DNA of 21,296 nt. Origin: a virus. Taxonomy: Duplodnaviria > Heunggongvirae > Uroviricota > Caudoviricetes. The stretch lies in IMG/VR virus record IMGVR_UViG_2695420380_000006; one strand, given 5' to 3'. Every line of letters starts with the position of its first letter. Within the stretch, counting starts at the first letter, position 1. The notes under the pieces were generated by a model. The model worked only from the letters and a program-made list of their open reading frames with translations. It did no database searches and had not been told where the DNA came from. A program made the translations under genes and the position numbers. Below, one piece after another: positions 1-20,963 of this stretch.

Positions 1-319
1 TACGCCGGACCACCGTTCCGCCGACCAGACTCTGTAGATCTTCCGCCATCCCGGTGACCATACCGTACAGGTTAGAAACCATCAGCGTGGGGCGCGTACT
101 GGTGCCTTTGCCATTCAGTTCAAAACCACTCCCCTGAATGGGATACGGCTGATACTGTCGCCCCTGCCAGGTGACCGGCTCACCTTTTTCGTTCTGCTCA
201 TTACAGAAAAAATAACGTTCACCACCGACCTCTGTCAGATCGATTTCCCAGAGCACCACGCTGGCCGACTGCTCCGCACGGGTGCATTCATTCAGTGTTT
301 CCTGCCGGATATCCTGCAT
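1..319 (-). CDS. L: Minor tail protein L (lambda gpL-like), partial; 3' end runs off the left edge of the window
   Basis: Minus-strand translation from the ATG at 319-317 reads MQDIRQETLNECTRAEQSASVVLWEIDLTEVGGERYFFCNEQNEKGEPVTWQGRQYQPYPIQGSGFELNGKG..., matching the lambda gpL N-terminus as I recall it. The start overlaps the M stop (TGATG). Not in the ORF track because the frame has no stop inside the window. Confidence 0.8.
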   Translation of the reverse strand, partial: MQDIRQETLNECTRAEQSASVVLWEIDLTEVGGERYFFCNEQNEKGEPVTWQGRQYQPYPIQGSGFELNGKGTSTRPTLMVSNLYGMVTGMAEDLQSLVGGTVVRR

Positions 320-648
320 CAGTTCACCACCTGTTCAAACTCTGCGCTGAACTCAACACGCAGCATACTGACCCGCGACGACCATTTTGCGCAGGTCACC
401 TTTATCTGCCGCCACTCATAAGGCGGCGTCCACAGAAAGGCTTTCCAGCCCCCGTGCTCTTCCAGAAACGACTCCAGTACCATGGCCTCCTCACGGGGGA
501 CAGAAAGCGTCACGCTGTACGTTTTCAGGTTGGCATTCAGCCCGGCAGGCGCTCGCTGGGAATAGCCATCACCAAAGCGCACCTTTCTTACAGAAGGGGC
601 CGAAGCCACATCCATACCGGGTTTCACTTTCCAGCGGAAGGTTTTCAT
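319..648 (-). CDS. M: Minor tail protein M (lambda gpM-like)
   Basis: 109-aa ORF (MKTFRWKVKPGMDVASAPSVRKVRFGDGYSQ...) of gpM size, sitting between H and L in lambda order; its ATG overlaps the H stop (ATGA). Confidence 0.85.
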   Translation of the reverse strand: MKTFRWKVKPGMDVASAPSVRKVRFGDGYSQRAPAGLNANLKTYSVTLSVPREEAMVLESFLEEHGGWKAFLWTPPYEWRQIKVTCAKWSSRVSMLRVEFSAEFEQVVN

Positions 649-3247
649 CGTCCACCTCCGGAGAACAGGCCACCATCACGCATCTGTGTCTGAATTTCAT
701 CACGGGCACCCTTGCGGGCCATGTCATACACGGCCTTCATCATCTGTGGACCTGGCAGACCATTCGTACCGTCGTTCTGAATCACCACGTGATTGTTCTG
801 ATTAAAATTAATGCCTTCAGCCCGCCGCATCTGCGCCGGACTTCCGGCACCGCCCACATAACCACCTTCCGCATAGCCGCGCATCAGCCGGTAGAGATTC
901 CCCACGCCAATCCGGCTGGTTGCCTCCTTCGTGAAGACAAATTCACCACGGTGAACAATCCCCGCTGGCTCATATTTGCCGCCGGTTCCCGTAAATCCCC
1001 CGGTTGCAAAATGGAATTTCGCCGCAGCGGCCTGAATGGCTGTACCACCTGACGCGGATGCGCCGCCACCAACAGCCCCGNNNNNNNNNNNGCGCTGCCG
1101 ATACTCCCGACTATCCCCACCATCGCCTGCTTCAGAAAAATCTCTGTNNNNNNNNNNNNNNNNATCTCTGTCAGCATGGACAGCACAGAACGGGTGAAAC
1201 CACGCCAGTTCTGTTCGCTGCCGATCAGCATCGCTGCCATATTCTGTGCAATACCGTCAAAGGTCTGCGTGGCCGCGTTTTTAACCTGCGAAAAACTGTC
1301 CGTCGCACTTTCCGCCCACTCGCCCCAGCCGGACTTCATCCCGGCCATCCAGCTTCCACGAAGCTGCTCCTCCGCAGACCAGGTGTTCTTCAGTGCAGAT
1401 GTGGCCTTCGCCAGCGCAGCCGGATTATCACCGTACACCTCACGAAGGCGCTGCTCTTCCGACTCCCGCTGCGCCTGACGGTCGGTGAGTCCGCGGGCTT
1501 TTGCGCTGATTGCCGCCTGCTTCGCGCTCTGCTGCTGTTCAAACCGCGCCGCCTGCTGTGCCAGCTCATTCAGCCGTTTCTGGTGTTCAATCTTGTCGCC
1601 CAGCTCAGCCAGCTGGCGTTTGTACTCCAGCGTTTCTTTCTCATGGGCCAGCAGGGATTTTTCCTGCTCAGATAACTGCCGTTTCGTGGCGGCCTCTTTC
1701 AGGACCACATACTGATTTTCCGCTTTCCATAAATCACGGCGCTGCTGGCTGATTTTTTCATTCGCACCGCTGTGCTTCTCCAGCGTCCTGAGCTCAGTTT
1801 CAAGCGCCAGCAGGGCTGCATGCGCCTGGTCTTCCTGGCGCTCACCGGCAGACACCTTCACACCGGACGGCTTTTTCTGCGTCGACTCATAATCCTTTTT
1901 TGCCGACGCCATCAGCGTGTTGTAATCCGCCTGCAGGATTTTCCCGTCTTTCAGGGCCTTATTCAGCTCTTCCTGCCGGGCGGTATATTTCTCCAGTGGC
2001 GTCAGCAGGCGCTCATACGCCTTCTGCGCCTCTCCGGTATACTTCAGCTGTGACGACTCACGCTCAGCCCTGTCCCTTGCCGCCAGTTCACCGGCTTTTT
2101 CCATATCCGACTGCAGCGTTGCCGCTGCCAGACCCAGACGGGCATTTTCCCGGTCATCCCATGCGCCCTGAAGGTTGGCCCGGAAAGAGGAGGTTTTACC
2201 GCGGCGCTGGCTCCGACTCTGGTACCACTGCCATTTTTTATCCGCCTCATCAAATGCCTTCTGCGCACTGGCGAGCATATCCGCTGAGGATTCCGGACGA
2301 CCGATATCCAGAATGGCATCCCACATCGATTTGAATGCCTTCCCTGTTTTATCCGCCCAGGTCTCCAGTGTTCCCATGTTTTCTTTCAGGCGACGGGTCT
2401 GCTCATCAAAGCCTTTCGTGGCGATATCGTTCGCCGCCTGCAATGCCCCGGCCTCGTCTCCGGAACGCTGCAGCTGTGCAACATACGCAATCTGCTCTGC
2501 CGTCACGTTACGGAACTGGCGCGCCATCGCCATCAGTCCCGACGTCGGGTCAGTGGTCAGCTTCCCGAAGGCTTCAGCGACTTTATCCACCTCCACACCG
2601 GATGCAGACGCAAAACGCGCGACACTCTGGTTGATGGCATCAAACTGTTCACCACCACGCACACCGGCATTCACCAGGGCTGCCAGTGACTCTCTCGCCT
2701 GGTTAAACGTCAGCCCTGCTGCCTGCCCGGCTCTTGAGAGAGTCAGCATACGATCGGCAGTCAGTCCGGACTGATTACCGGAAAGAACCAGGGTTTTATT
2801 AAACGCTGAAAGCGTGGAATCTCCCTGGTACCAGGCGTACACCAGTGCACCTGTCGCCACCGCCAGCGAGGTGACCCCGACCATCGGCAGGGTGATCGCA
2901 TCGGCAAGCCCCCTGAACATGGGGATCATCCCGCCGAAGGAGTCCTTCACCTGACCGCCCTGTTGCAGCAGGATCAGCCAGGGATTCTGACCACCGGCAA
3001 GCTGCGTGGCGATATCCGTAAACTGTGCGGGCAGGGTTCGCATGGCCGCTTTATACTGCCCGACGGAAATCCCGGCTTTTTGTGCAGCCAGCGCCTGGCG
3101 GCTCAGGCCCTGTTCAACAGCACTGGCGGTTTTTCTGGCGTCGGTATCCAGACCTGAAAAATGACGCCTTACCCGGCTCATCTGCTCATCGAAACGGACA
3201 GCATCCAGACTCAGGTCAATAACAAGATCACCAACCGGCTGGGACAT
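645..3247 (-). CDS. H: Tail tape measure protein H (copy 1), interrupted by N runs at 1081-1091 and 1148-1163
   Basis: Track ORF 884-3247 (MSQPVGDLVIDLSLDAVRFDEQM...) is the H body. Track ORF 645-905 (...GNLYRLMRGYAEGGYVG...DEIQTQMRDGGLFSGGGR) is the H C-terminus in another frame, and that frame is open back to 1080 (…GGKYEPAGIVHRGEFVFTKEATSRIGVGNLYRL). The apparent frameshift coincides with the two N runs, so it is very likely artefactual. Confidence 0.8.
925..1080. repeat. 156-bp segment of H copy 1 that is identical to 6876-7031 in H copy 2
   Basis: By base-by-base reading the two segments are identical, whereas adjacent homologous H sequence (1092-1147 vs 7043-7098) shows several mismatches. 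Confidence 0.7.
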
Positions 3248-4099
3248 ATCTCACACCTCCCGGAATCCCCGCTGAAGCCATCATTAATGCGGCATCATCC
3301 ACCATGACATCCGCCACATCCGCAGACGATAAAATATCGCGCCCTCCGTCCCCACCGAACCGGACGCCTCCGGCAAGTCCTGCCGCTTTCTGCATCAGCA
3401 TTTTGTCCTCATCCGGCCTCTCCACCTGCTCTTCCTCATGCCGGGGGACAAGCAGGCTGAAATCAGAGGGATGCATATCCGGATCGCAAAAAAACAGGCT
3501 GAGTACAGCGTACGTCAGCCCGGAAAAATGCATATCCAGCTGGGTATCCTGAAAATAATGCGTGCGGTAAAAACGGCGCCAGTCGGCATATTCGGTGGAT
3601 GTCATCCCGGCAAGCATGGCGCGCCAGTCGGGTCTCCCCATCTCACGCGCCAGTCTGAGGGCAAAGTTCAGCTCGCCGTCGAAGACTTTCCCGCAGAAAA
3701 ATCATCATCAGTCAGCGTGTTATTTTTCGCCACTTCAGTAATATCAGTATCCGGACGAACAGCTTCGATCATCCCGGACAGGCACAACACCACGTCTTCC
3801 GCCCGGGCAATGGCATCGGCAGGCCAGGTGGTGAGCACTTCCTGCTCTATCTTCATCACGGCCTCATTCATTGACGGTGACTGCGTTTTCTGTGGATGGT
3901 TATGCCACAGGGACATCGCCACCAGAAACGCGCCGGTTCTGACGAGATCTTCCACGCTTACCTGCAGGTTGCCGCTGGATTCTGCCTGTTCTGCACGCCG
4001 TTTCAGGAGGGCAAGATGCTCGATACGCTGCAGCGCAGACAATTCGGAAAGCGTGACAGACACACCGTTATATTCAAATTGTTCTGTTTTCAGAAACAT
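3228..4099 (-). CDS. T: Tail assembly chaperone G-T fusion (copy 1), made by -1 programmed ribosomal frameshift at 3686-3692
   Basis: The G frame (3668-4099) ends ...DDDFSAGKSSTAS*. The T frame (track ORF 3228-3641) is open upstream to the slippery heptamer. The minus strand reads GCG-GGA-AAG at plus 3686-3692 (ctttccc), the lambda-type G GGA AAG slip site. Confidence 0.75.
3668..4099 (-). CDS. G: Tail assembly chaperone G (copy 1)
   Basis: 143-aa ORF MFLKTEQFEYNGVSVTLSELSALQRIEHL..., lambda gpG-like, in the conserved position between V and T/H. Confidence 0.85.
   Translation of the reverse strand: MFLKTEQFEYNGVSVTLSELSALQRIEHLALLKRRAEQAESSGNLQVSVEDLVRTGAFLVAMSLWHNHPQKTQSPSMNEAVMKIEQEVLTTWPADAIARAEDVVLCLSGMIEAVRPDTDITEVAKNNTLTDDDFSAGKSSTAS
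3686..3692 (-). promoter_or_regulatory. Slippery heptanucleotide G GGA AAG for the G to G-T -1 frameshift (copy 1)
   Basis: Plus-strand ctttccc is minus-strand GGGAAAG, 6 codons before the G stop; the T frame is open from here. Confidence 0.75.
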
Positions 4100-4112
4100 G
4101 TATTACCTCCGT

Positions 4113-4865
4113 TTACCCTGCAGCGCCCGCTTCAGTAACGGTGACTTCAGCCACTGCGGCGAACTGACCATTTCCGCTCACCACAGGGATCTGCACCTTA
4201 CCTGTCGCCACGCCGTTTACCGTAATTGTCATATCTTTCACACTAATGGTGGCTTTCGACGGATCGGCGGAAACCGCTCTGAACGTCTTGTCGGTTGCAC
4301 TTTCCGGCTCAAAAGAAACCGTCAGGGTGGTTGTTTTCCCTTTTGCCACCGTACCGGATGTCGGCGTCACCTTAATCGCACTGACCGGCGTAATTTTGCT
4401 GCGTTCTTCCGCTACAGAAGGTTTACCCACGTTAGTGACTTTCACCGTGCGGGTGATCACTTCTTTCGCCGTCACGGCCTTACCGATACTGCTGACCCAG
4501 CCACGAAACACATCCACCGTGCCATTCGGAAAACGGATTTTATAGGCCCGGACATCGCCGCTTTCAACCCAGCCTATAAGCCCTTTCTGGCCTTCCTCTC
4601 CCGGTTTCCAGGCCAGCGTAAAACTGGTATCACCTGCAGATTTCTGCCCCTGCCCGGTCGCGCTCCAGTCCGCGTCTTCATCATCCAGGTAGTTATCATC
4701 ATAGGATTCAGCCGTCATCTCGCCCGGCGTCAGATCCTTCACCTTAGCCAGTCGCTGCCAGTCATCGTCTGACAACGGGTTTGCATAAGCATCAGCCTTG
4801 CCGTTGTAAACCCACAGAGTGGTACCGGCACCTTTTACCGGCTCCAGGGGATTTGGTGTTGCCAT
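4113..4865 (-). CDS. V: Major tail tube protein V (copy 1)
   Basis: 250-aa [39 protein letters not shown]..., lambda gpV-like including the C-terminal Ig-like region; sits between U and G. Confidence 0.85.
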
Positions 4866-4872
4866 ATCGTCC

Positions 4873-5268
4873 TCACATCTCGTATGTAATGGAATAAGTC
4901 AGATCCGCAGAGCTCCATAACGCCATATCGTCATCACGACGATACTCATAGCCCTGCGTAACCATCGTGGTAATCAGTCCTGCCAGTGCAGGGATCGCAG
5001 TCATCGCCGGATAAATCCGGCTTTCCATCCACTGATCGAGCTCCGAATCAGGTACCTGTGCCGGTAAAAACACCTCAATATGCAGTGTGGCCCGCCAGGT
5101 ATCTGCATCCAGCTCTTCACCGGTATACTCTGCATCCGTCAGATAAACCGCGATCGCAGGAAAATCCTCTTCGTCAAAAACAACGGGGCGACCATCAAAC
5201 AGCGTCGCCCCGTGTTCATGCTGCTCGAGTGCATCCAGCACTGCGGCACGAATGTCAGTGTGTTTCAT
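4873..5268 (-). CDS. U: Tail tube terminator protein U (copy 1)
   Basis: 131-aa [46 protein letters not shown]..., lambda gpU-like; its start overlaps the Z stop. Confidence 0.85.
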
Positions 5269-5840
5269 CGTTTTATCGCAATCCTCAGTTGTTGTTTCAG
5301 CGCGTATGCCAGTTCTTTAGGCAGGCGTTCACGCCGGATACGGTCAACATTCTCATCAAATGCCTGTTTCAGTGGGGCCGCCATCGGGATTTTCACCACC
5401 TGAATGGGAAGGCGATTACGCTTTTTCCTTCCCTTGTCGTCATTGCCCTCCTCATATCTGGCCTGGGGAAGACGTTGCATAACATGCCAGCGCCCATTAT
5501 TTAATCGCTGGATAAATGCCCGCTGATAACGATGCTGACCGGCTTTGAGTATGCTGTTCGGACGACGCCCCAGCATTCTGATCCCCAGCTTAATCACAGG
5601 GAGATCACCGCGGTTAACGATAATTCTGGCATTCGGATTTCTGACCGTCGCCCGTTTCAGTCTGGACCGTTCCTTTACCAGTTTCCGTCTCACCCTGGTT
5701 TCCCGGGCAACCTGTGACGAAGACTGATTAATCGCCGTTGTGGCCACGCGGTTAATGGTCATTGCAGAAGCAGCCGGAATGGCGTTTTTACGAACCCGGC
5801 TCAGATTGTCAATCGCCTGATCAAGCCCTTTTATCGCCAT
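5265..5840 (-). CDS. Z: Tail completion protein Z (copy 1)
   Basis: 191-aa ORF MAIKGLDQAIDNLSRVRKNAIPAASAMTINRVA..., lambda gpZ-like. Confidence 0.85.
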   Translation of the reverse strand: MAIKGLDQAIDNLSRVRKNAIPAASAMTINRVATTAINQSSSQVARETRVRRKLVKERSRLKRATVRNPNARIIVNRGDLPVIKLGIRMLGRRPNSILKAGQHRYQRAFIQRLNNGRWHVMQRLPQARYEEGNDDKGRKKRNRLPIQVVKIPMAAPLKQAFDENVDRIRRERLPKELAYALKQQLRIAIKR

Positions 5841-5854
5841 AATTCACCCTGCGT

Positions 5855-5929
5855 TTATCGTCGCCGGTTAACTGCGGGTGGTTGCCCACGGTTGAGCCAG
5901 AGATAACAGCTGCCCCCGTCATCCGGAGA
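5855..5929 (-). pseudogene. FII: FII-like (head-tail joining) gene remnant; only the last ~24 codons remain, 5' part replaced by the IS element
   Basis: Minus-strand translation of 5929-5855 gives ...SPDDGGSCYLWLNRGQPPAVNRRR*, which parallels the C-terminus of the intact FII at 11734-12087 (...SPDDGGSCHLWLGRGVPPAVNRRR*). The reading frame runs directly into the IS terminus at 5930. Confidence 0.7.
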
Positions 5930-6874
5930 TGTCAGCGCCAGTGATATAAGACGGTAATTCGCCATTTGGATTGTCCGCTCCACCCAACATGTTGTTTCCT
6001 TAAGGTTCTCACACCAGAAAGGACATCAACATGCTGAGCAGAGAGGACTTTTACATGATAAAGCAAATGCGCCAGCAGGGCGCGTACATCGTCGATATTG
6101 CGACTCAGATTGGTTGCTCTGAACGGACGGTCAGACGCTACCTCAAATACCCTGAACCGCCAGCCAGAAAGACCCGCCACAAAATGGTTAAGCTGAAACC
6201 GTTTATGGATTACATCGACATGCGCCTGGCAGAGAATGTCTGGAATAGCGAGGTTATCTTCGCGGAGATTAAGGCAATGGGTTATACGGGCGGACGTTCC
6301 ATGCTGCGTTACTACATCCAGCCCAAACGTAAAATGCGTCCGTCAAAAAGAACAGTTCGCTTCGAAACTCAGCCTGGATACCAGCTCCAGCATGACTGGG
6401 GCGAAGTTGAGGTGGAGGTTGCCGGGCAACGGTGCAAAGTTAACTTGGCGGTTAATACGCTGGGGTTCTCCCGCAGCTTCCATGTCTTCGCCGCACCAAA
6501 ACAGGATGCTGAGCATACCTACGAATCACTGGTTCGCGCCTTCCGCTACTTCGGTGGTTGTGTGAAAACGGTGCTGGTTGATAACCAGAAGGCTGCGGTG
6601 CTGAAGAATAACAACGGGAAAGTCGTGTTCAACTCCGGATTCCTGTTGCTGGCTGACCACTATAACTTCCTGCCACGGGCATGCCGTCCACGCAGGGCCA
6701 GAACAAAAGGTAAGGTTGAGCGGATGGTGAAATACCTCAAGGAGAACTTCTTCGTCCGGTACCGCAGGTTCGACAGCTTCACTCATGTCAATCAACAACT
6801 GGAGCAATGGATAGCCGATGTGGCTGACAAACGGGAGCTTCGCCAGTTCAAAGAAACGCCGGAACAGCGCTTCG
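5930..6874 (+). mobile_element. IS21-family (IS100-like) insertion sequence, 5' fragment only (left terminus plus truncated istA); no istB or right terminus
   Basis: Begins TGTCAGCGCCAGTG... immediately after the FII remnant. Encodes the first ~281 codons of an IstA-type transposase and ends at the ambiguous base 6875, where H-homologous sequence starts. IS100-like assignment is from recalled IstA sequence, not a search. Confidence 0.7.
6031..6874 (+). pseudogene. istA: IS21-family transposase IstA, 3'-truncated
   Basis: Track ORF 6031-6885 (MLSREDFYMIKQMRQQGAYIVDIATQIGCSERTVRRYLKY...QFKETPEQRF) has an HTH N-terminus and an IS21/IS100-type IstA body. Full-length IstA is about 340 aa as I recall it, and here the frame is cut at the 6875 junction. 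Confidence 0.75.
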
Positions 6875-6875: not shown

Positions 6876-7031
6876 TCCTTCGTGAAGACAAATTCACCAC
6901 GGTGAACAATCCCCGCTGGCTCATATTTGCCGCCGGTTCCCGTAAATCCCCCGGTTGCAAAATGGAATTTCGCCGCAGCGGCCTGAATGGCTGTACCACC
7001 TGACGCGGATGCGCCGCCACCAACAGCCCCG
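6876..7031. repeat. 156-bp segment of H copy 2 that is identical to 925-1080; begins right after the ambiguous junction base
   Basis: See 925-1080. Confidence 0.7.
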
Positions 7032-9157
7032 CCAATGGCGCTGCCGATACTCCCGACAATCCCCACCATTGCCTGCTTAAGCAGAATTTCTGTCATCATG
7101 GACAGCACGGAGCGGGTGAAGCTGCGCCAGTTCTGTTCACTGCCGGTCAGCATCGCCGCCATATTCTGTGCAATACCATCAAAGGTCTGCGTGGCTGCAC
7201 TTTTAACCTGTGACATACTGTCCGTGGCGCTCTCTTCCCACTCACTCCAGCCGGACTTCAGGCCTGCCATCCAGCTCCCGCGAAGCTGGTCTTCAGCCGC
7301 CCAGGTCTTTTTCTGCTCTGACATGACGTTATTCAGCGCCAGAGGATTATCGCCATACTGTTCCTTCAGGCGCTGTTCCGTGGCTTCCCGCGCTGCCTGC
7401 CGGTCAGTCAGCCCCCGGTTTTTCGCATCAATGGCTGCCCGTTTTGCCCGTTGCTGCTGTGCGAATTTATCCGCCTGCTGCGCCAGCGCATTCAGGTGCT
7501 CCTGATACGTAACCTTGTCACCAAGTGCAGCCAGCTGGCGTTTGTACTCCAGCGTCTCGTCTTTATGCGCCAGCAGGGATTTCTCCTGTGCGGACAGCTG
7601 GCGACGTTGTGCCGCCTCCTCCAGTACCGCGAACTGACTTTCTGCCTTCCACAAATCCCGGCGCTGCTGGCTGATTTTCTCATTCGCTCCGGCATGCTTC
7701 TCCAGCGTCCGGAGTTCTGCCTGAAGCGTCAGCAGGGCCGCATGAGCACTGTCTTCCTGACGATCGCCCGCATACACCTTCACGCCGGACTGTTTCGGCT
7801 TTTTCAGCGTCGCTTCATAATCCTTTTTCGCCGCCGCCATCAGCGTGTTGTAATCTGCCTGCAGGATTTTTCCGTCTTTCAGTGCCTTGTTCAGTTCTTC
7901 CTGACGGGCGGTATATTTCTCCAGCGGCGTCTGCAGCCGTTCGTAAGCCTTCTGCGCCTCTTCGGTATATTTCAGCCGTGACGCTTCGGTATCGCTCTGC
8001 TGCTGCGCTTTTTTGTCCTGTTGACGCTGTTGATCTACCCTCTTTTGGGCTGCATCCCGCTCCAGGCGTTTTTTTTCACGATCATCCCAGTAACGCGCCC
8101 GTGCTTCATCGTTAACGAAATAATCATCCTTGCGCAGATTCCAGATGTCGTCTGCTTTCTTAAACGCAGCCTCTGCCTTAATCAGCATCTCCTGCGCGGT
8201 ATTAGGACGACCAATATCCAGCACCGCATCCCACATGGATTTGAATGCACGTGCAGTCCTGTCTGCCCAGGTCTCCAGCGTGCCCATGTTCTCTTTCAGG
8301 CGGCGGGTCTGGTCATCAAACCCTTTCGTTGCGGCCTCGTTCGCCGCCTGCAATGCCCCGGCTTCATCGCCGGAACGCTGCAACTGAGCAACATACGCAA
8401 TCTGCTCCGCCGTCACGTTATGGAACTGGCGTGCCATCGCCGTCAGCCCCGACGTCGGGTCTGTGGTCAGCTTCCCGAAGGCTTCAGCGACCTTGTCCAC
8501 CTCCACGCCGGATGCAGAGGAGAAACGCGCCACACTCTGGCTGATGGACGCAATCTGAGCCTCACCGCTTACCCCCGCCTTAACCAGTGCGCTGAGTGAC
8601 TCGCTGGTCTGGTTAAACGTCAGCCCTGCCGCCTGCCCGGCTCTGGACAGGACCAGCATACGATCTGCCGTCAGTCCCGCCTGATTACCGGAAAGGACCA
8701 GCGTTTTGTTGAAATCGGACAGGGTTGAGTTGCCCTGATACCAGGCATACGCCAGCGCACCGGTCGCCACCGCCAGCGAGGTGGCCCCCACCATCGGCAG
8801 GGTGATCGCGCCGGCAAGCCCCCTGAACATGGGGATCATCCCGCCGAAGGAGTCCTTAACCTGACCACCCTGTTGCAGCAGGATCAGCCAGGGATTCTGC
8901 CCCCCTGCAAGCTGCGTGGCCACGTCGGTGAACTGTGCAGGCAGCATACGCATGGCGGCTTTATACTGCCCGACGGAAATCCCCGCTTTCTGTGCAGCCA
9001 GCGCCTGTCGGCTCAGCGACTGTTCAACGACTGCCGCTGTTTTTTTCGCATCACTTTCCGTACCGGAAAAATGACGCCTGACTCTGGCCATCTGCTCGTC
9101 AAATCTGGCCGCATCCAGACTCAAATCAACGACCAGATCGCCTACCGGTTCAGCCAT
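6876..9157 (-). CDS. H: Tail tape measure protein H (copy 2, lambda-like), 3'-truncated at the 6875 junction
   Basis: Track ORF 6848-9157 (MAEPVGDLVVDLSLDAARFDEQMARVRRHFSG...GGKYEPAGIVHRGEFVFTK) follows lambda gpH as I recall it up to the junction. The last ~90 codons present in copy 1 (645-924) are missing. Confidence 0.8.
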
Positions 9158-9988
9158 ACCGGACTCCTCCTGCGATCCCTTCTGATACTGTCATCAGCAT
9201 TACGTCATCCTCCGTCATGTCCGCCACATCCGGGGAAGCGGGGATAACTTCATTCCCGTCCGGGCCAAAGCGGACACCTCCGGCAAGCCCTGCCGCTTTC
9301 TGCATCAGCACATCATCTTCAGGCTCTTCGTCAGCCTCGCGCCGGTTCAGCAGACTGAAATCCAGCGGATGCATCTCCGGATCGCTGAAAAACAGGCTGA
9401 GCACGGTGTACGTCAGCCCGGAAAAGTGCATATCCAGCAGAACATCATGAAAATAATGGGTACTGTAAAAGCGGTGCCAGTCGGCATACTCCGTGGATGA
9501 CATCCCGGCAAGCATGGCGCGCCAGTCGGGTCGCCCCATCTCACGCGCCAGTTTCAGGGCAAAACTCAGCTCACCGTCGAACACTTTCCCGCAGAAACAG
9601 GCTCTGCAGGCCCGGCGTCCTCTGCCTGTTCAGGAGCATCATTCACCACAAACTCATACATACCGGACAGCCGGTACACCACGTTTTCAGCATGAGAAAT
9701 TGCCTCTGTGGGCCAGGTGGTAAGCACTTCCTGCTCAATCTGTTTAACGGCTTCATTCATGGACGGCATCTGCGTCTTCTTCGGATGGTTATGCCACAGG
9801 GACATCGCAACCACAAAAGCGCCGGTTCTGATGGCGTCTTCCACAGTAAACTTCCGGTTGCTGTCTGACTCCGCCTGTTCTGCCTGCCGTTTCATCAGGT
9901 CGAGATGCTCAATACGCTGCAGGGCTGACAGTTCAGAAAGCGTGACGGTCACACCGTTATGTTCAAATGATTCGGTTTTCAGGAACAT
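9150..9988 (-). CDS. T: Tail assembly chaperone G-T fusion (copy 2), made by -1 programmed frameshift at 9584-9590
   Basis: G frame 9566-9988, T frame track ORF 9150-9584; plus-strand ctttccc at 9584-9590 is minus-strand GGGAAAG. Confidence 0.75.
9566..9988 (-). CDS. G: Tail assembly chaperone G (copy 2)
   Basis: 140-aa ORF MFLKTESFEHNGVTVTLSELSALQRIEHLDLMKR..., lambda gpG-like. Confidence 0.85.
   Translation of the reverse strand: MFLKTESFEHNGVTVTLSELSALQRIEHLDLMKRQAEQAESDSNRKFTVEDAIRTGAFVVAMSLWHNHPKKTQMPSMNEAVKQIEQEVLTTWPTEAISHAENVVYRLSGMYEFVVNDAPEQAEDAGPAEPVSAGKCSTVS
9584..9590 (-). promoter_or_regulatory. Slippery heptanucleotide G GGA AAG for the G to G-T -1 frameshift (copy 2)
   Basis: Same heptamer and same spacing to the G stop as in copy 1. 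Confidence 0.75.
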
Positions 9989-10003
9989 CGCTGACTCTCC
10001 GGA

Positions 10004-10744
10004 TTAACTGGCGGTGACGTTGATTTCTGCAACCGCAGCAAACTCACCATTACCAGATACGACCGGAATGTTGACCTTGCCTGCAGCAACACCTTTCACG
10101 GTGATGGTCATACCACTGACCGACACGGTGGCTTTTGTTTTATCCGCAGACACCGCACGGAAGCTCTTGTCGGTTGCGCCATCCGGCTGGAATGCCACGG
10201 TCAGCGTGGTGCTCTGCCCTTTCACTACGGAAGCACTGGCGGGTGTCACCGTCATGCCGGTCGTCGCCGTCACCGTGCTGCGATCTTCTGCCATCGACGG
10301 ACGTCCCACATTGGTGACCTTCACCGTGCGGGTAATCACCTCCTTCGCCGTCACCGCCTTACCGATACTGCTGACCCAGCCACGGAACACATCGACCGTG
10401 CCGTTCGGGAAGCGGATTTTATAGGCACGGGTATCACCTTCATTAAACCACGCCAGCAGCGCCTGCTGCCCCTGCTCTCCGGGCATCCACGCCAGCGTGA
10501 AGCTGGTATCTCCGGCAGATTTCTGCCCCTGCCCGGTCGCAGTCCAGTCTGCATCTTCATCATCGAGATAGCTGTCGTCATAGGACTCAGCGGTCAGTTC
10601 GCCGGGCGTCAGGTCTTTAACTTTTGCCAGACGCGACCAGTCAACGTCTGAAAGCGGGTTCGCATAAGGGTCACCGCTCCCCTTATAAACCCACAGGGTG
10701 GTCCCGGCACCTTTCACCGGCATTGTAGGATTTGGTACAGGCAT
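10004..10744 (-). CDS. V: Major tail tube protein V (copy 2, lambda-like)
   Basis: Track ORF 10004-10774; the likely true start is the internal [36 protein letters not shown]..., which matches the lambda gpV N-terminus. Confidence 0.85.
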
Positions 10745-10751
10745 AGCGTCC

Positions 10752-11147
10752 TCACATTTCATAGATAATGACATAAGTCAGATCGGCTGAACTCCACAGG
10801 CCCGCATCATCGTCGCGCCGGTAGTCATAGCCGCTGGCCACCATACTGGTGATCAAATCTGACAGTGCCGGGATATCGCTCATCACCGGATAAATCCGGG
10901 ACTCCATCCACGAATCCAGCTCTGAATCCGGCACCTGAGCAGGCAGGAAAACTTCAATATGCAGCTCCGCCTGCCAGGTATCGCTGTCCAGCTCTTCGCC
11001 CGTGTATTCAGCGCCGGTGAGATAAACGGCAATTGCCGGAAAATCTTCCTCATCAAAAACAGCGGGGCGACCATCAAAAAGCGTCGCCCCGGTGTCATGC
11101 TTCTCCAGTGCATCCAGTACGGCTGCACGGAGTTCAGTATGTTTCAT
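10752..11147 (-). CDS. U: Tail tube terminator protein U (copy 2)
   Basis: 131-aa [46 protein letters not shown]..., lambda gpU-like. Confidence 0.85.
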
Positions 11148-11722
11148 CGCTTTATTACCATTCTCAGTTGATGCTGCAGCGCATAGCCCAGCTCTTTCGG
11201 AAGACGTTCACGCCGTATCCGTTCAATATTCTGTTTAAACGCCGTGGTCAGCGGCACCGCCATCGGGATTTTCACCACATCAATGGGGTAACGGTTTTTC
11301 CCGGCCACACGCTGCATAACATGCCACCGGCCGTTTTTCAGTTGCTGAATAAACGCGCCGGGAATACGACGGTTACCCACCACAAGCACGCTGCCGCCAC
11401 CTTTCAGGGATGAACGCTGCCCCTTTTTATGACGCCTGCGGCGGGACAGGACAACCCGCGCATTACCCAGCTTGATTACGGGCAAATCCCCCCGGTTAAC
11501 TTTGATTCTGGCCTGCGGATTTTTGACCGTGGCCCTTTTCAGCCTGGCCCTTTCCTTTACCAGTTTCCGGCGTACCTTTGTCTCACGGGCAACCTGTGAC
11601 GCAGACTGCGATATCGCGGATGAAGCAACGCGGTTAATGGCCATTGCGGCGGCACCGGGCACCGCCGTTTTGCTGATACGGCTGAGGTTTTCAACGGCCT
11701 GCTCAAGACCTTTTATGGCCAT
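11144..11722 (-). CDS. Z: Tail completion protein Z (copy 2)
   Basis: 192-aa ORF MAIKGLEQAVENLSRISKTAVPGAAAMAINRVA..., lambda gpZ-like. Confidence 0.85.
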   Translation of the reverse strand: MAIKGLEQAVENLSRISKTAVPGAAAMAINRVASSAISQSASQVARETKVRRKLVKERARLKRATVKNPQARIKVNRGDLPVIKLGNARVVLSRRRRHKKGQRSSLKGGGSVLVVGNRRIPGAFIQQLKNGRWHVMQRVAGKNRYPIDVVKIPMAVPLTTAFKQNIERIRRERLPKELGYALQHQLRMVIKR

Positions 11723-11733
11723 ACATCCCCCTT

Positions 11734-12087
11734 TCAGCGGCGACGGTTAACGGCAGGCGGTACGCCCCGTCCAAGCCAGAGATGACAACTTCCGCCATCA
11801 TCCGGCGAAACCCGATCTACCCAGAAATTTTCCTCACCGATGGTCAGCGTGTCTCCACGCCGCAGCTGCCGCACCTCATCAGTCCGGACAAACAGGGACG
11901 GGCTGGAGCCTTCAACGCGCACGCCCTGTCCGGCATAGCTGATATTTTCAGGGTCATCAAAAACACCACGTATCACCGCACCTGACTGCTCACCGGATGT
12001 CATGGTGGCTGACGTTCCCATGTACCCGCGTATCGTTTCATCGGCGCGGGCAATGGCAGCATCGAACAGGTTATCGAAATCAGCCAC
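11734..12087 (-). CDS. FII: Head-tail joining protein FII
   Basis: 117-aa ORF MADFDNLFDAAIARADETIRGYMGTSATMTSGEQSGAVIRGVFDDPENISYAGQGVRVEGS..., lambda gpFII-like. Confidence 0.85.
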   Translation of the reverse strand: MADFDNLFDAAIARADETIRGYMGTSATMTSGEQSGAVIRGVFDDPENISYAGQGVRVEGSSPSLFVRTDEVRQLRRGDTLTIGEENFWVDRVSPDDGGSCHLWLGRGVPPAVNRRR

Positions 12088-12098
12088 AGCGCCTCCCG

Positions 12099-12497
12099 TT
12101 ATTGCATTCTGGCCAGGCCGCGCTCTGTCATTTCGGCTGCCACACCGGCAGAGACACGAAACGCCGTTCCCGGCAGCACAAATGCCACAGGTTTATCCCG
12201 CGTGGCGTGAAGTGCATCAGTATGCAGCGTCACCAGTGCCACGACCGTGACCAGTTCAGCCGTATCCTGAATCACGGTATCCGGCTGCGCTGATACCACC
12301 TCATTTTCATGCCCGGTCAGCACATTTTCCCGGCTGAGAGGGGTGTCCTGACCGGCAGTTTCATCCGTGTCATCAAGCTCTTCTTCCAGCTCTGCCACAC
12401 GAAGCGCCAGTTCTTCTTTCGTTCCCGTCAAACTGACATCGCGGTTCAATTGCTCACCCAGCTCCTGAAGACGGGCAATCAGTTCATCTTTCGTCAT
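12099..12497 (-). CDS. FI: DNA-packaging / head assembly protein FI
   Basis: Track ORF 12099-12536 has a 13-aa N-terminal extension. The internal ATG (MTKDELIARLQELGEQLNRDVSLTGTKEELALRVAEL...) is preceded by GGAGGA with 5-nt spacing and gives a lambda gpFI-like 132-aa product. Confidence 0.8.
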   Translation of the reverse strand: MTKDELIARLQELGEQLNRDVSLTGTKEELALRVAELEEELDDTDETAGQDTPLSRENVLTGHENEVVSAQPDTVIQDTAELVTVVALVTLHTDALHATRDKPVAFVLPGTAFRVSAGVAAEMTERGLARMQ

Positions 12498-12518
12498 GAA
12501 CTCCTCCACAGAGAGAAA

Positions 12519-12536
12519 ATGGCCCCGAAGGGCCAT
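12519..12536 (-). terminator. Intercistronic stem-loop between E and FI: AUGGCCC-UUCG-GGGCCAU on the late mRNA, followed by a U/C-rich tract
   Basis: Perfect 7-bp GC-rich inverted repeat with a UUCG tetraloop, starting 2 nt after the E stop codon and ahead of the FI ribosome-binding site. Confidence 0.5.
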
Positions 12537-12538
12537 GA

Positions 12539-13564
12539 TTACGCCAGTTGAACGGACACGAACTCATCAGGATCAGCCAGCAGCATCAGCGGTGCTGACT
12601 GAATCATGGTGAACTCACGCGCCGGATCGCCGGTGGTCACCCAGTTTTTCGGGTAACGGGCAGAGGCGTTAATGCCTTCGCGCTGTGCGTCCGCATCCTG
12701 AATGCAGCCATAGGTGCGCAGACCGCGAGCCTGAGTGTTCCCCAGCACCATCGTGTTGTCCGGCAGGAAGTTCTTTTTGACGCCGTTTTCCACGTACTGT
12801 CCGGAATACACGACGATGGCCACATCGCCATACATTCCCTTATAGGACACCGCTTTGCCCAGGTCTTTTACCGCTGTCTCCAGCTCGGAATGAGAGCCGC
12901 GACGGGTATCCAGCTTCTCCTTGACGGCTTTGAAGGAACGGAACAGCGCCCAGCCTTTCGGGTCAAACACGATGATATTCACCACACCGCTGGCGTTCAG
13001 CGCGTAGGCTTCGATATCGTCGGTCGGGTCATACGTGGACTTGTCACGCTTGCTCCACTCCGTGACGCCGGACTGTGTGATGTTGTTCGCCGCACTGCGG
13101 CCCATATCCACCTCAACCGGATCGAAGGCTTCACCGGTCATGGTGTATTTGCCCTTGAGCACGGCAGAAACTGCCTGCATCTCTTCGACCTGAGCAATGG
13201 CCAGCTCTTCGTCACGCATGTTCTGCATGATGATGCGACGGCGGCGGTAAGCCGGGTCCGCCAGATTCTGCGGATCTTCATCCGGCAGGCGACGCAGGGT
13301 CATCTGCGGATTCACCTCATGCTTGGGTTTGACATATCCCGGCGTAAATTCAGAGGTGGAGCCGCCACGGGAACGGATAACCTCACCGGAAACAATCGGC
13401 GAAACGTACAGCGCCATGTTTACCAGTCCCGGAATTTGTGAGAGATAGACTTTCTCCGTAGTGAAGGGATAGCTCTCACGGAAAAAGAGACGCAGAAACA
13501 GCGGATCAAACTTAAATTTCTGCTCATTTGCCGCCAGCAGCTGGGCGGTTGTGTACATCGACAT
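12539..13564 (-). CDS. E: Major capsid protein E
   Basis: Track ORF 12539-13591; the likely true start is the internal MSMYTTAQLLAANEQKFKFDPLFLRLFFRESYPFTTEKVYLSQ..., lambda gpE-like. The 9-aa upstream extension overlaps the intergenic hairpin and is unlikely to be translated. Confidence 0.9.
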   Translation of the reverse strand: MSMYTTAQLLAANEQKFKFDPLFLRLFFRESYPFTTEKVYLSQIPGLVNMALYVSPIVSGEVIRSRGGSTSEFTPGYVKPKHEVNPQMTLRRLPDEDPQNLADPAYRRRRIIMQNMRDEELAIAQVEEMQAVSAVLKGKYTMTGEAFDPVEVDMGRSAANNITQSGVTEWSKRDKSTYDPTDDIEAYALNASGVVNIIVFDPKGWALFRSFKAVKEKLDTRRGSHSELETAVKDLGKAVSYKGMYGDVAIVVYSGQYVENGVKKNFLPDNTMVLGNTQARGLRTYGCIQDADAQREGINASARYPKNWVTTGDPAREFTMIQSAPLMLLADPDEFVSVQLA

Positions 13565-13577
13565 AAAAAAATCCCGT

Positions 13578-13599
13578 AAAAAAAGCCGCACAGGCGGCC
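13578..13599 (-). terminator. Intercistronic terminator-like hairpin between D and E: GGCCGC-CUGU-GCGGC followed by U7, then ACGGGA-U7 directly before the E start codon
   Basis: GC stem at 13585-13598 with a T-tract at 13578-13584 on the minus strand; a second T7 run lies at 13565-13571 immediately upstream of the E ATG. Confidence 0.5.
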
Positions 13600-13619
13600 T
13601 TTAGTGATGAAGGGTAAAG

Positions 13620-13765
13620 TTAAACGATGCTGATTGCCGTTCCGGCAAACACGGTCCGTTTTTTCGTCTCGTCNNNNNNNNNNCGTCTCGTCGCTGGCAG
13701 CCTCCGGCCAGAGCACATCCTCATAACGGAACGTGCCGGACTTGTAGAACGTCAGTGTGGTGCTG
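13620..13765 (-). CDS. D: Head decoration protein D, visible C-terminal part only; the 5' part lies in the 282-N run and a 10-N run interrupts the last codons
   Basis: Minus-strand translation of the visible sequence gives ...STTLTFYKSGTFRYEDVLWPEAASDET[N run]DETKKRTVFAGTAISIV*, a lambda gpD-like C-terminus with stop at 13620-13622. Confidence 0.75.
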
Positions 13766-14047
13766 NNNNNNNNNNNNNNNNNNNNNNNNNNNNNNNNNNN
13801 NNNNNNNNNNNNNNNNNNNNNNNNNNNNNNNNNNNNNNNNNNNNNNNNNNNNNNNNNNNNNNNNNNNNNNNNNNNNNNNNNNNNNNNNNNNNNNNNNNNN
13901 NNNNNNNNNNNNNNNNNNNNNNNNNNNNNNNNNNNNNNNNNNNNNNNNNNNNNNNNNNNNNNNNNNNNNNNNNNNNNNNNNNNNNNNNNNNNNNNNNNNN
14001 NNNNNNNNNNNNNNNNNNNNNNNNNNNNNNNNNNNNNNNNNNNNNNN

Positions 14048-14434
14048 CCGGGTTACCTGCAGCCAGCGGTGCCGGTGCCCCCTGCATCAGACGATCCAGC
14101 GCAGTGTCACTGCGCGTCTGTGCACTCTGTGGTGCTGCGGCCAGAATACGGCGGGGCGGNNNNNNNNNNNNNNNNNNNNNNNNNNNNNNGTTTCCACGGT
14201 CATACCGGGGGTTTCGGCCAGCACGCGTGCCTGTTCTTCGCGTCCGTGAGCCTCCTCACAGTTGAGGATCCCCATAATGCGACTGTTTTCTGCCGCAACC
14301 GCTGCGGTGATCTGCGCGTTCACGTCCGGCTGCGCCGCGCTGGCGTTCTCGCCCTCCGTCGCTTGCACCACGCCAGTAACGTCAGCCTGCGAAGCAGTGG
14401 CTGAAACAGTTGTTGATTGAGTCTCTTTGGTCAT
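14048..14434 (-). CDS. Nu3: Scaffolding protein Nu3, nested in-frame in the 3' part of C (internal start at 14434); 3' end masked
   Basis: Internal ATG at 14432-14434 preceded by AGGAGG with 4-nt spacing (minus strand CAGGAGGGCGA-ATG-ACC), giving MTKETQSTTVSATASQADVTGVV... In lambda, Nu3 is the in-frame C-terminal segment of C. Confidence 0.6.
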
Positions 14435-15338
14435 TCGCCCTCCTGAGAGACGGGATTTACGTGCATCCAGTGCATCACGCATGACGGTGATCGCATCGGT
14501 ACTGTTAACAAGTTCATCAGCCAGTCCGGCATCAATGGCCTCCTGACCGCTGTACACTGCAGCCTCGGTATCCAGCACAGCCTGCACGGACAGGCCGGTA
14601 TATGCCGACACCTTCTGTGCAAACATCCGGCGGGTTGCATCCATCCGGGACTGCAATGTTTCCCGGACATCATCCGGTAGATGGCTGTAGGGGTTGCCAT
14701 CCACCTTATGGCTGCCGCTGTAAATCAGCGTGATTTCCACGCCCTGTTTCTCCAGTGCAGCGCCGTAATTACTGTGAGCCATCATGACGCCGATGGAGCC
14801 TGTCCGGGCGGTCTGCGTGACCAGACGCCGGGAGGCGGCACTGGCAAGCAGCTGACCTGCGCTGCAGTTCATGTCATTGGCCAGCGCCCATACCGGCTTT
14901 ATGTCACGCACACGGGCGATGATGTCAGCGCAGTCAAATGCTCCCGCCACCATTCCGCCCGGTGTGTCCATATCGAGCAGAATGCCGTCCACCATCGGGT
15001 CGCTGGCAGCCTGTTGCAGACGGGCAATAATGCCGTTGTAACCGGTCATCCCCGAGTACGGCTGCAGCGCCCGCGTCCGGCTGACCAGCGTGCCGGACAC
15101 CGGCAGCACGGCGATGCCGTTCATTACCTGATAACTGCGGGCCTGTCGTGGTCCGTCATCATCACCGGATAACGCCAGCGCCGCGGGTGCCTCTCCGGCA
15201 GTCAGGCTGTCGCCGGATACTGCATCCGTCAGGCAGCTGATCCCAAGCTGGCCTGCAAGCGCACAAAAGAAAACCCGCGCATAGGCGGGTTCAAGCATCA
15301 GCGGCTCATTAAAAGCCATGCTGGCAATATGCGGGAGA

Positions 15339-15358
<20 letters not shown>
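14048..15358 (-). CDS. C: Capsid assembly protease / scaffold protein C (ClpP-like), GTG start; contains a 30-N run and its 3' end lies in the 282-N run
   Basis: Minus strand reads AGGAGGAGAAGA-GTG-ACAGCAGAG..., i.e. a strong ribosome-binding site then VTAELRNLPHIASMAFNEPLMLEPAYARVFFCALAGQLG..., lambda gpC-like. The C-terminal ...LMQGAPAPLAAGNP is visible at 14049-14087 in a different frame from the body, i.e. across the 30-N run. Confidence 0.8.
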
Positions 15359-19071
<3,713 letters not shown>

Positions 19072-19097
<26 letters not shown>

Positions 19098-19617
19098 TCA
19101 GCAACCCCGGTATCAGTTCATCCAGCGCGGCTGCTTTGTTCATGGCTTTGATGATATCCCGTTTCAGGAAATCAACATGTCGGTTTTCCAGTTCCGGAAA
19201 ACGCCGCTGCACCGACAGGGGGATCCCGTCGAGAATACTGGCAATTTCACCTGCGATCCGCGACAGCACGAAAGTACAGAATGCGGTTTCCACCACTTCA
19301 GCGGAGTCTCTGGCATTTTTCAGCTCCTGTGCGTCGGCCTGCGCACGCGTAAGTCGATGGCGTTCGTACTCAATAGTCCCTGGCTGGAGATCTGTCTCGC
19401 TGGCCTGCCGCAGTTCTTCAACTTCCCGGCGCAGCTTTTCGTTCTCAATTTCAGCATCCCTTTCGGCATACCATCTTATAACGGCGGCAGAGTCATAAAG
19501 CACCTCATTACCCTTGCCACCGCCTCGCAGAACGGGCATTCCCTGTTCCTGCCAGTTCTGAATGGTACGGATACTCGCACCGAAAATGTCAGCCAGCTGC
19601 TTTTTGTTGACTTCCAT
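19072..19617 (-). CDS. Nu1: Terminase small subunit Nu1
   Basis: 181-aa ORF MEVNKKQLADIFGASIRTIQNWQEQGMPVLRGGGKGNEVLYDSAAVIRWYAERDAEIENEKLRRE..., lambda Nu1-like with an N-terminal HTH. Confidence 0.9.
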
Positions 19618-19796
19618 TGTTCATTCCACGGACAAAAACAGAGAAAGGAAACGACAGAGGCCAAAAAGCCCGTTTTCAGCACCTGTCGTTTCCTTTCTTT
19701 TCAGGGGGTGTTTTAAATAAAAACATTAGGTTACGGCGAAGAAGAACGGAAACGCCTTAAACCGGAAAATTGTCATAAATAGCGAAAACCCGCGCG
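19618..19796 (-). promoter_or_regulatory. cos region: cosB (Nu1 binding / IHF region) plus the cosN-equivalent 12-mer at 19785-19796
   Basis: The minus strand upstream of Nu1 reads ...GGGCGGAAGGCG-CGCGGGTTTTCGCTATTTATGACAATTTTCCGGTTTAAGGCGTTTCCGTTCTTCTTCG..., closely resembling the lambda left end as I recall it. The flank on the other side (19797-19950) resembles the lambda right end. Confidence 0.7.
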
Positions 19797-20005
19797 CCTT
19801 CCGCCCCGTAACCTGTCGGATCGCCGGAAAGGACCCGCAAAATGATAATAATTATCATCTACATGTCACAACGTGCATCTACGCCATCAAACCACGTCAA
19901 ATAATCAATTATGACGCAGGTATCGTATTAATTGATCTGCATCAACTTAACGTAAAAACAACTTCAGACAATACAAATCAGCGACACTGAATACAGGGCA
20001 ACCTC

Positions 20006-20239
20006 ATGTCAACGAAGAACAGAACCCGCAGAACAACAACCCGCAACATCCGCTTTCCTAACCAAATGATTGAACAAATTAACATCGCTCTTGTTCAAAA
20101 AGGGTCCGGGAATTTCTCAGCCTGGGTCATTGAAGCCTGCCGCCGGAGACTGTGCTCAGAAAAAAGAGTTTCGCCTGAAGCAAACAAAGAAAAGAGTGAC
20201 ATTACTGAATTGCTCAGAAAACAGGTTAGACCAGATTGA
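20006..20239 (+). CDS. Small basic prophage protein of unknown function; resembles YlcI/YnfO-type (DUF3950-like) proteins found beside cos in lambdoid prophages
   Basis: 77-aa ORF MSTKNRTRRTTTRNIRFPNQMIEQINIALVQKGSGNFSAWVIEACRRRL..., in AT-rich DNA and oriented opposite to the late operon. Family assignment is from memory, not a search. Confidence 0.55.
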   Translation: MSTKNRTRRTTTRNIRFPNQMIEQINIALVQKGSGNFSAWVIEACRRRLCSEKRVSPEANKEKSDITELLRKQVRPD

Positions 20240-20296
20240 AGCAATTTAGATAATCGTGCAGACTACGCCCCCTCATATCACATGGAAGGTACTACA

Positions 20297-20707
20297 ATGG
20301 CTCAGGTTGCCATTTTTAAACAAATATTCGATAAAGTGCGAAATAATTTAAACTATCACTGGTTTTATTCTGAACTAAAACGTCACAATGTCTCACATTA
20401 CATTTACTATTTAGCCACAGAGAATATTCATCTTGTTCTTGAAAACGATAATACGGTTTTAATAAAAGGACAGGGTAAGGTTGTAAATGTAAGATTTTCA
20501 AAAAATAAATGCCTTATAGAAGCCACCTTAAAAGGATTCAAATCAGGAGAGTTATCATTTTACGAATACAGGAAAAATCTTGCTACAGCAGGGGTTTTCA
20601 GATGGATTACAAATATCCACGAAAACAAAAGGTATTACTATACCTTTGATAATTCATTACTCTTTACTGAGAACATACAGAACACTACACAAATATTTCC
20701 GCACTAA
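20297..20707 (+). CDS. Prophage protein of unknown function; resembles YbcV/YdfO-type (DUF1398-like) proteins
   Basis: Track ORF 20282-20707; the likely start is the internal ATG at 20297 ([31 protein letters not shown]...), preceded by GGAAGG about 8 nt upstream. AT-rich codon usage unlike the structural genes. Confidence 0.55.
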
Positions 20708-20963
20708 ATCATAACGTCCGGTTTCTTCCGTGCCAGAACCGGACTCGCTGGCATGATGAAATATGTGTACCCGGTAACCCCGGTGTGCATCGTTTTTGAT
20801 TATTCCCGCACACTCGCGCAGAAGGAGTTCCCCGTCGGGCTACGGTCTCTGTTAATACGGGAATACGGCGACGATACAGCGCATGATGTGTCAGGCTTGA
20901 ATACCTTTATCCGTTAAAAGGGATATCAGTTAAGTTATCCCGTGTAGGGTATAAGCCATTATC

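Follow-up and report, generated by a model that had tools for sequence, protein, structure and literature searches.

Do the two lambda-type tail modules found on this DNA lie in tandem in the chromosome, or was their order created during assembly? The window, that is the whole stretch of DNA that was analysed (21,296 nt), is the entire public scaffold CXCT01000069.1 (GCA_001249045.1), Ns included. A preliminary description of the window had proposed three explanations: two adjacent prophages, one of which retains only tail genes; a hybrid prophage whose tail genes are redundant; or a scaffolding artefact joining two prophage loci. We conclude, with a probability of roughly 93%, that the tandem layout is a scaffolding artefact, in which 5.8 kb of one prophage (prophage B, the source of copy 1) has been misplaced inside the tape-measure gene H of another (prophage A, the source of copy 2). 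The coordinates of all features are collected in Table 1.

Table 1. Features of the scaffold, with the prophage to which each piece was assigned.
Positions	Strand	Feature	Prophage	Remarks
1-325	-	Tail gene L, 5' part	A	Runs off scaffold end; Pfam Phage_tail_L 3.9e-35
319-648	-	Tail gene M, 109 aa	A	Pfam Phage_min_tail 7e-40
645-1080	-	H2, 3' end	A	H2 nt 2127-2562 of 2562; contig stops at gap
925-1080	.	Exact duplicate	A	Un-merged overlap of two truly adjacent contigs
1081-1091		Gap, 11 N	A/B	False join, within 29-nt stretch common to both H alleles
1092-1147	-	H1 contig, 56 nt	B	Exact to prophage-B locus L003 14670-14725; no match in prophage-A locus L013
1148-1163		Gap, 16 N	B	Flanking contigs truly overlap 8 nt, ATCTCTGT on each side
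1164-3247	-	H1, codons 1-694 of 857	B	Pfam TMP_2, Tape_meas_lam_C
3228-3641	-	T	B	Pfam Phage_tail_T 3.4e-14
3668-4099	-	G	B	Pfam Phage_TAC_2 1.9e-51
4113-4865	-	V, major tail tube protein, 250 aa	B	Pfam Phage_TTP_12 1.4e-67, Big_2
4873-5268	-	U	B	Pfam Phage_tail_U 1e-61
5265-5840	-	Z	B	Pfam Minor_tail_Z 1e-50
5841-5929	-	FII 3' remnant (~25 codons) and short spacer before Z	B	Gene cut by IS
5930-6874	+	IS21-family left end and first 281 istA codons	B	Pfam rve, HTH; contig stops inside IS
6875		Single N	B/A	False join, IS21 fragment to H2
6876-9157	-	H2	A	H2 nt 1-2282; final 156 nt repeat 925-1080
9150-12087	-	T, G, V, U, Z, FII (tail module proper)	A	ORFs; 97.6% to lambda
9157 downward	-	H, copy 2	A	ORF
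9150-9584	-	T, copy 2	A	ORF
9566-9988	-	G, copy 2	A	ORF
10004-10774	-	V, copy 2	A	ORF
10752-11147	-	U, copy 2	A	ORF
11144-11722	-	Z, copy 2	A	ORF
11734-12087	-	FII, copy 2	A	ORF
13674-13683, 13766-14047, 14160-14189, 15391-15555		Remaining N runs (seven in all)		

Open reading frames and Pfam matches bear out the description of two lambda-type Z-U-V-G/T-H blocks in one orientation, both on the minus strand. All copy-1 ORFs match the expected Pfam families above curated cut-offs, with E-values from 1e-14 to 1e-69. In both copies a GGGAAAG slip site, where a -1 frameshift is predicted to yield the GT fusion, is found on the minus strand just before the G stop (3686-3692 and 9584-9590). The two peptide strings quoted earlier from the copies are present in the window, and the copies have indeed diverged: their DNA is 75-80% identical over ~5 kb, which upholds the view that this is no recent tandem duplication. 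At the protein level, identity between copy 1 and copy 2 amounts to 65% for Z, 82% for U, 76% for V, 67% for G, 65% for T and 79% for H. The homology stops at 5929, equivalent to 11808, within copy-2 FII.

The preliminary description had not noticed that runs of N lie exactly at the joins (1081-1091, 1148-1163 and 6875). The block 1092-6874 is flanked by N at both ends, and unbroken sequence is found across neither of the two junctions between the modules. At 6875, the prophage-B locus (L003) and the prophage-A locus of CP032523.1 (L013) run on into unrelated sequence, and a search there for microhomology that could accompany a real join gave only a trivial CTTCG likeness. The scaffolder SSPACE places a single N where a predicted contig overlap is not found, which would fit this position. 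Elsewhere in the scaffold, 8-9 nt are repeated on the two sides of gaps, and N runs of 10, 282, 30 and 165 nt stand for true distances of -9, 256, -2 and 55 nt, respectively. Because the flanks are duplicated and the N lengths are unlike the true distances, the runs are scaffold gaps. That they are instead masks laid over a continuous underlying sequence has a negligible probability on the same evidence, and the public record carries identical Ns at identical positions.

The sequences on either side of the inserted block also indicate a mis-join. Positions 925-1080 are identical to 6876-7031 in 156 of 156 bases, in modules that are elsewhere 75-80% identical; at a background identity of 79%, the chance of a perfect run of this length is ~1e-16. 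This sequence is present in the prophage-A locus and has no exact match in the prophage-B locus. When the two flanks are merged at the overlap (1-1080 with 7032-9157), the reference sequence is restored, giving an intact H ORF of 853 aa with its stop ending at 645 and 851 of 853 residues identical to H of prophage A in CP032523.1. Copy-2 H is thus whole only once the inserted contigs are taken out. As deposited, neither H gene is intact, and the 787-aa and 769-aa ORFs found in their place are products of the gaps.

The same comparison reassigns the genes M and L. The preliminary description had made copy 1 their sole carrier, which is wrong: positions 1-1080, comprising L', M and the last 145 H codons, show 1 mismatch in 1080 to prophage A of CP032523.1. 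We also considered that 1-1080 might be a collapsed repeat common to both prophages and rejected this, the corresponding region downstream in prophage B being ~78-79% identical. Copy 1 as laid out consists of 694 of 857 H codons followed by a gap, with its own M and L absent.

Together, 1-1080 and 6876-20097 (the comparison reaches 20097, the end of the reference locus) are 99.5-100% identical to prophage A in five records (CP032523.1, CP104423.1, CP061367.1, CP026802.1 and AKNC01000068.1). Prophage A, with the gene order Nu1-A-W-B-C-D-E-FI-FII-Z-U-V-G/T-H-M-L, is apparently a complete lambda-like prophage. Over 9150-12087 it agrees at 99.5-99.7% identity with the five complete records used for comparison, Shigella sonnei ATCC 29930 among them.

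The inserted block is made of two contigs (56 nt and 5.7 kb). It covers the first 694 H1 codons and the genes T, G, V, U and Z, followed by the FII 3' stub and by 945 nt belonging to an IS21-family element. The H1 portion is identical to the H prefix of the prophage-B locus in 694 of 694 residues, and an exact match to the copy-1 V protein was found in the source scaffold alone. Within 5930-6874, istA shares 99.9% identity with IS21-family istA genes annotated in E. coli records. The prophage-B contig ends 945 nt into this element, unlike two other drafts (L029 and L030), which end at window position 5928, the edge of the IS; this difference is a point against the artefact reading. More generally, 1164-6874 (5,711 nt) is 99.91-99.97% identical to an IS21-FII'-Z..H locus in five finished genomes (CP032523.1, HE616528.1, CP044191.1, CP026802.1 and CP041511.1), and all five have the same FII'/IS21 junction. 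An exact-pattern scan for that junction in GTDB representative genomes gave no match, a result that is uninformative on rarity, since that collection probably treats Shigella as part of E. coli. Compared as a whole with complete E. coli genomes, the window matched single-module lambda-like prophages at ~93% identity, and neither inter-module junction was present in any of 5,426 complete E. coli genomes. The top E. coli match, E200139, has an IS21-family element near its prophage; this element lies in rrrD and is unrelated to the junction in the window.

Aligning the modules to finished relatives answers whether they occupy one locus or two. CP032523.1, which we take to be an S. sonnei AR Bank strain, has the two prophages at 4.28-4.30 Mb and 4.83-4.85 Mb, and CP026802.1 has them at 0.92-0.93 Mb and 0.36-0.38 Mb. 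In these two finished genomes, which are relatives of the isolate and the two in which separate loci were seen directly, prophages A and B share one orientation and are separated by ~554 and 560 kb. An 857-aa H and an M and L of its own are present in prophage B of both genomes; in finished genomes it has no head genes, and its FII is cut by the IS21-family element. Wherever prophage A or prophage B was examined in a finished relative, it was contiguous and not interleaved. We assign the species because CP026802.1 is S. sonnei ATCC 29930 (PMC9430107) and HE616528.1 is S. sonnei 53G (PMC5447701). In these strains the head-less, IS21-disrupted remnant, to which 1164-6874 corresponds with its FII'/IS21 junction included, is found at 2,086,411-2,096,824 (53G, HE616528.1) and 923,109-933,522 (ATCC 29930, CP026802.1). 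There the remnant continues through the C-terminal part of H and through M, L, K and I of its own, and on the IS side it is bordered by a truncated istB and by an element of the IS3 family, whereas in the window gaps cut both ends.

These arrangements bear on the first of the proposed explanations, namely that the two prophages are truly adjacent, one being tail-only, and that the scaffold merely blurs their boundary. Half of this proposal stands: prophage B is indeed reduced, having no head genes, an FII cut by IS21 and, in locus L003, lysis genes immediately past IS elements. The adjacency does not stand. Because 1-1080, beyond the prophage-B piece, is prophage A, prophage B would have to lie within prophage-A H and not beside prophage A, and the finished genomes separate the two by ~555 kb. 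We regard true adjacency as extremely unlikely.

The second explanation, a hybrid prophage in which tail genes are redundant, would require that the layout is real, the 5.8 kb of prophage B and its truncated IS21-family element having inserted into prophage-A H. The deposited scaffold does give that order, both prophages are directly oriented, and a hybrid H1/H2 joint is conceivable through a crossover in the 29-nt run that both alleles share; IS elements and recombination between prophages are, moreover, frequent in Shigella. Yet each join is an N gap that no contiguous sequence bridges, and the scaffold's other gaps can be shown to have wrong lengths or to be spurious. Such an insertion would also require an exact 156-nt target duplication around the insert, whereas IS21-family elements duplicate only a few bp of target, and it would leave an IS broken mid-istA and joined to H2 without homology. 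Furthermore, relatives carry each prophage un-interleaved, and the two lie far apart in both genomes from which both were retrieved. The hybrid is therefore unsupported, and a real insertion is in our view very improbable. We hold it similarly doubtful in the extreme that the isolate or a subpopulation carries some true rearrangement, for example an H1/H2 joint within the 29-nt identity, like the novel joint of a 555-kb duplication; in that case true read pairs spanning the joint would have led the scaffolder astray.

The third explanation, a scaffolding artefact joining two prophage loci, is the one that accounts for the N gaps, the 156-nt overlap, the restored H and the distance between the loci. 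In finished genomes of the lineage, the insert has its near-identical match at another locus. The ends of the contigs are informative as to how the error may have arisen. Contig ends 1080 (prophage A) and 1092 (prophage B) both fall in the 29-nt run common to the H alleles (H1 nt 2113, H2 nt 2101). The next prophage-A contig ends at 6876, H2 nt 2282, inside a 20-nt run common to H1; the end at 6874 lies inside the IS21-family element. We infer that a short-read assembler broke the contigs in H at these 20- and 29-nt runs, and that a scaffolder would then have threaded the prophage-B contigs between two adjacent prophage-A contigs overlapping by 156 nt. Short-read mis-joins at repeats of paralogous prophages are known to have N-gap joins and shared short runs, as here, as well as un-merged contig ends and wrong gap sizes, both of which are seen in the window.

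Taken as a biological feature, the tandem double tail module is not real. This case cautions that short-read draft scaffolds can interleave prophage paralogues, so that modules falsely seem duplicated, ORFs are fused and genes are cut short; the artefactual ORFs in this scaffold are the two 'H' products and a 961-aa 'B-C'. Counts of prophages, tail modules or tape-measure lengths taken from CXCT01000069.1 would mislead. The underlying biology is already present in finished S. sonnei genomes, as a lambda-like prophage and, ~555 kb off, a head-less, IS-eroded lambdoid remnant.

All genes in the window are >96% identical to known phage genes, and by sequence comparison both the copy-1 and the copy-2 alleles are already known. 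Copy 2 had been described as close to canonical lambda, and window 6876-12100 is 97.6% identical to the lambda tail module (J02459.1, 7599-12823) over its full length and in the same gene order. Lambda also shares the GGGAAAG slip site and an H of 853 aa, as in the reconstructed copy-2 H. Unlike lambda, copy 2 belongs to a prophage resident in an S. sonnei-type chromosome, and the scaffold breaks it with a contig of foreign origin. Among temperate lambdoid coliphages, Escherichia phage 204576 (CP025907.1) and PhiR12 (PV340549-PV340554), for example, have tail modules in the same gene order, to which copy 1 is 96-98% identical across 92-99% of its length; these phages are complete and have head genes, whereas copy 1 comes from a defective prophage.

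Two diverged Z-U-V-G/T-H tail blocks share one orientation and lie about 6 kb from each other, as the preliminary description had stated. This observation is correct and far beyond chance, because every copy-1 gene is backed by a Pfam match, the slip site GGGAAAG lies at the end of both G genes, and the two copies are 75-80% identical in DNA and 65-82% in protein. All long ORFs of the window are on the minus strand. Copy 2 is 97.6% identical to phage lambda (J02459, 7599-12823) and 97.9% to phage 434. Copy 1 shows identities of 96-98% with lambdoid phages 204576 and PhiR12 and of ~79% with the lambda group. By these alignments, both tail alleles are known ones, and nothing here is novel. For V of copy 2, the longest ORF (256 aa, from an upstream ATG) equals the old lambda annotation 'V;256', while gene callers choose a 246-aa start in relatives.

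Features of the window and the source of each piece (FII', 3' stub of the head-tail joining gene FII)
Feature	Position	Strand	Match or remark
Lambda head module Nu1, A, W, B, C, D, E, FI, FII	~19617 down to 11734	minus	
Copy 2 tail block	Z 11144-11722, U 10752-11147, V 10004-10774, G 9566-9988, T 9150-9584, H from 9157 down	minus	
IS21-family element, 945 nt	5930-6874	opposite to tail genes	
FII 3' stub, 89 nt	5841-5929	minus	
Copy 1 tail block	Z 5265-5840, U 4873-5268, V 4113-4865, G 3668-4099, T 3228-3641, H from 3247 down	minus	Pfam
M	319-648	minus	
Start of L	1-325	minus	
Piece	1-1080		lambda-like prophage of CP032523.1, 1/1080 mismatch
Piece	1092-1147		IS21-FII'-Z..H locus (prophage B), exact; 8-nt overlap with next contig
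Piece	1164-6874		IS21-FII'-Z-U-V-G-T-H locus of CP032523.1, HE616528.1, CP044191.1, CP026802.1, CP041511.1; 99.91-99.97% over 5,711 nt
Piece	6876-20097		lambda-like prophage of CP032523.1, CP104423.1, CP061367.1, CP026802.1, AKNC01000068.1; 99.5-100%

An exact match to the copy-1 V protein is found in only one public contig, CXCT01000069.1 (GCA_001249045.1), which is also 21,296 nt long and carries identical Ns; the window is therefore a whole scaffold from a fragmented draft assembly. Its seven N runs are scaffold gaps, not masks, and three stand at critical points (1081-1091, 1148-1163 and the single N at 6875). SSPACE writes a single N where an overlap was predicted but not found. Repeats of 8-9 nt flank the runs at 1148-1163 and 13674-13683, and N-run lengths of 10, 282, 30 and 165 differ from the true distances of -9, 256, -2 and 55 in a finished genome. 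Contigs beside 13674-13683 and 14160-14189 really overlap, by 9 nt and ~2 nt, and base errors adjoin the latter run (GGGGCGG versus GGGCC in finished genomes), which indicates contig ends of low quality.

To assign each piece to its source, finished chromosomes were retrieved by exact-protein look-up with copy-1 Z, copy-2 G and copy-1 T, and the window was searched against them by BLAST. On this comparison, the scaffold consists of the lambda-like prophage A (copy 2, tape-measure allele H2) and 5.8 kb of prophage B (copy 1, allele H1), placed between two contigs of prophage A that in reality adjoin and overlap each other. M and L had been attributed to copy 1; this is wrong, as 1-1080 differs from prophage A at a single position and shares only 79% identity with prophage B, the one disrupted by an IS. 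Positions 925-1080 and 6876-7031 are identical (156/156), although the modules are otherwise ~78% identical; the chance of such a run at 79% background identity is ~1e-16. One copy stops right where the 1081 gap begins, the other starts right after the N at 6875, and, of the two prophages, only the lambda-like one contains the segment. Merging 1-1080 with 7032-9157 through the overlap yields an unbroken H of 853 aa, the length of lambda H, identical to the finished-genome H at 851 of 853 residues.

In finished genomes the two prophages are separate loci in the same orientation: B at 4.28-4.30 Mb and A at 4.83-4.85 Mb in CP032523.1, B at 0.92-0.93 Mb and A at 0.36-0.38 Mb in CP026802.1 (S. sonnei ATCC 29930; PMC9430107). 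The distances between them are some 554 kb and 560 kb, respectively. The record HE616528.1 belongs to S. sonnei 53G (PMC5447701). Neither scaffold junction is present in any complete E. coli genome searched, and a real strain-specific rearrangement in the isolate is very improbable. Given the gaps at the joins, the 156-nt overlap, the restored H and the separate loci, the preliminary description was right to list a scaffolding artefact: the sequence features are real, and we put at roughly 93% the probability that their juxtaposition is artefactual.

H1 and H2 have several exact common runs of 20-50 nt, by which the assembler may have been misled. The prophage-A contig end at 1080 and the prophage-B contig start at 1092 both fall inside a common 29-nt run (H1 nt 2113-2141, H2 nt 2101-2129), and the contig of prophage A that starts at 6876 has its end in a common 20-nt run (H2 nt 2266-2285); the prophage-B contig breaks off after 945 nt of the IS. 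Contigs of other S. sonnei drafts (L019, L029, L030) likewise end in this stretch of H and at the edge of the IS. The WGS accessions of the CXB series, neighbours of CXCT01, are drafts from the S. sonnei collection of Holt et al. 2012 (PMC5447701), to which CXCT01 perhaps also belongs.

The suggestion of two adjacent prophages, one reduced to its tail genes, holds for the reduction and fails for the adjacency. Prophage B is a genuine remnant that lacks head genes and has been eroded by IS elements, as its gene content in finished genomes demonstrates: it has its own H (857 aa), M, L, K and I, and on the IS side an IS21-family istA, a truncated istB, an IS3-family element and then genes for lysis and late regulation (holin, DUF1327, nanS-like SASA, Q antiterminator). 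The IS21-family element cutting FII is itself damaged, with istB down to 179-184 aa and abutting the IS3-family element (loci L003, 6871-9810, and L024, 1-2611, of finished S. sonnei genomes). Both loci lack the head region entirely, with nothing left between the lysozyme gene and FII, which suggests IS-mediated deletion. Another decay state of this remnant is found in CP029794.1 (2,591,543-2,601,956; 4.54-Mb genome), where the IS21-family element beside Z1 is apparently gone (only ~125 nt align), holin and DUF1327 genes are nearby, and H1 is internally duplicated or rearranged, with two alignments each for window 1707-1833 and 1989-2115.

Within prophage A, the apparent portal-protease (B-C) fusion, a 961-aa ORF at 14087-16972, is an artefact: it reads through the N runs 14160-14189 and 15391-15555, and in relatives B (533 aa) and C (439 aa) are distinct genes. 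At 15660-15669, B is missing an in-frame stretch of 78 nt (26 codons) that is present in 7/7 prophage-A loci compared, of which five are complete records. The missing stretch is located between two copies of the 10-nt direct repeat GCTTCCTGAA, and its loss could be an assembly collapse at this tiny repeat or a real portal-gene deletion. Upstream of Nu1, 19700-21296 has a GC content of 0.40-0.42 versus ~0.55 elsewhere and two plus-strand ORFs (20006-20239 and 20282-20707); at the equivalent place, E. coli E200139 has an annotated YlcI/YnfO family protein and a DUF1398 protein.
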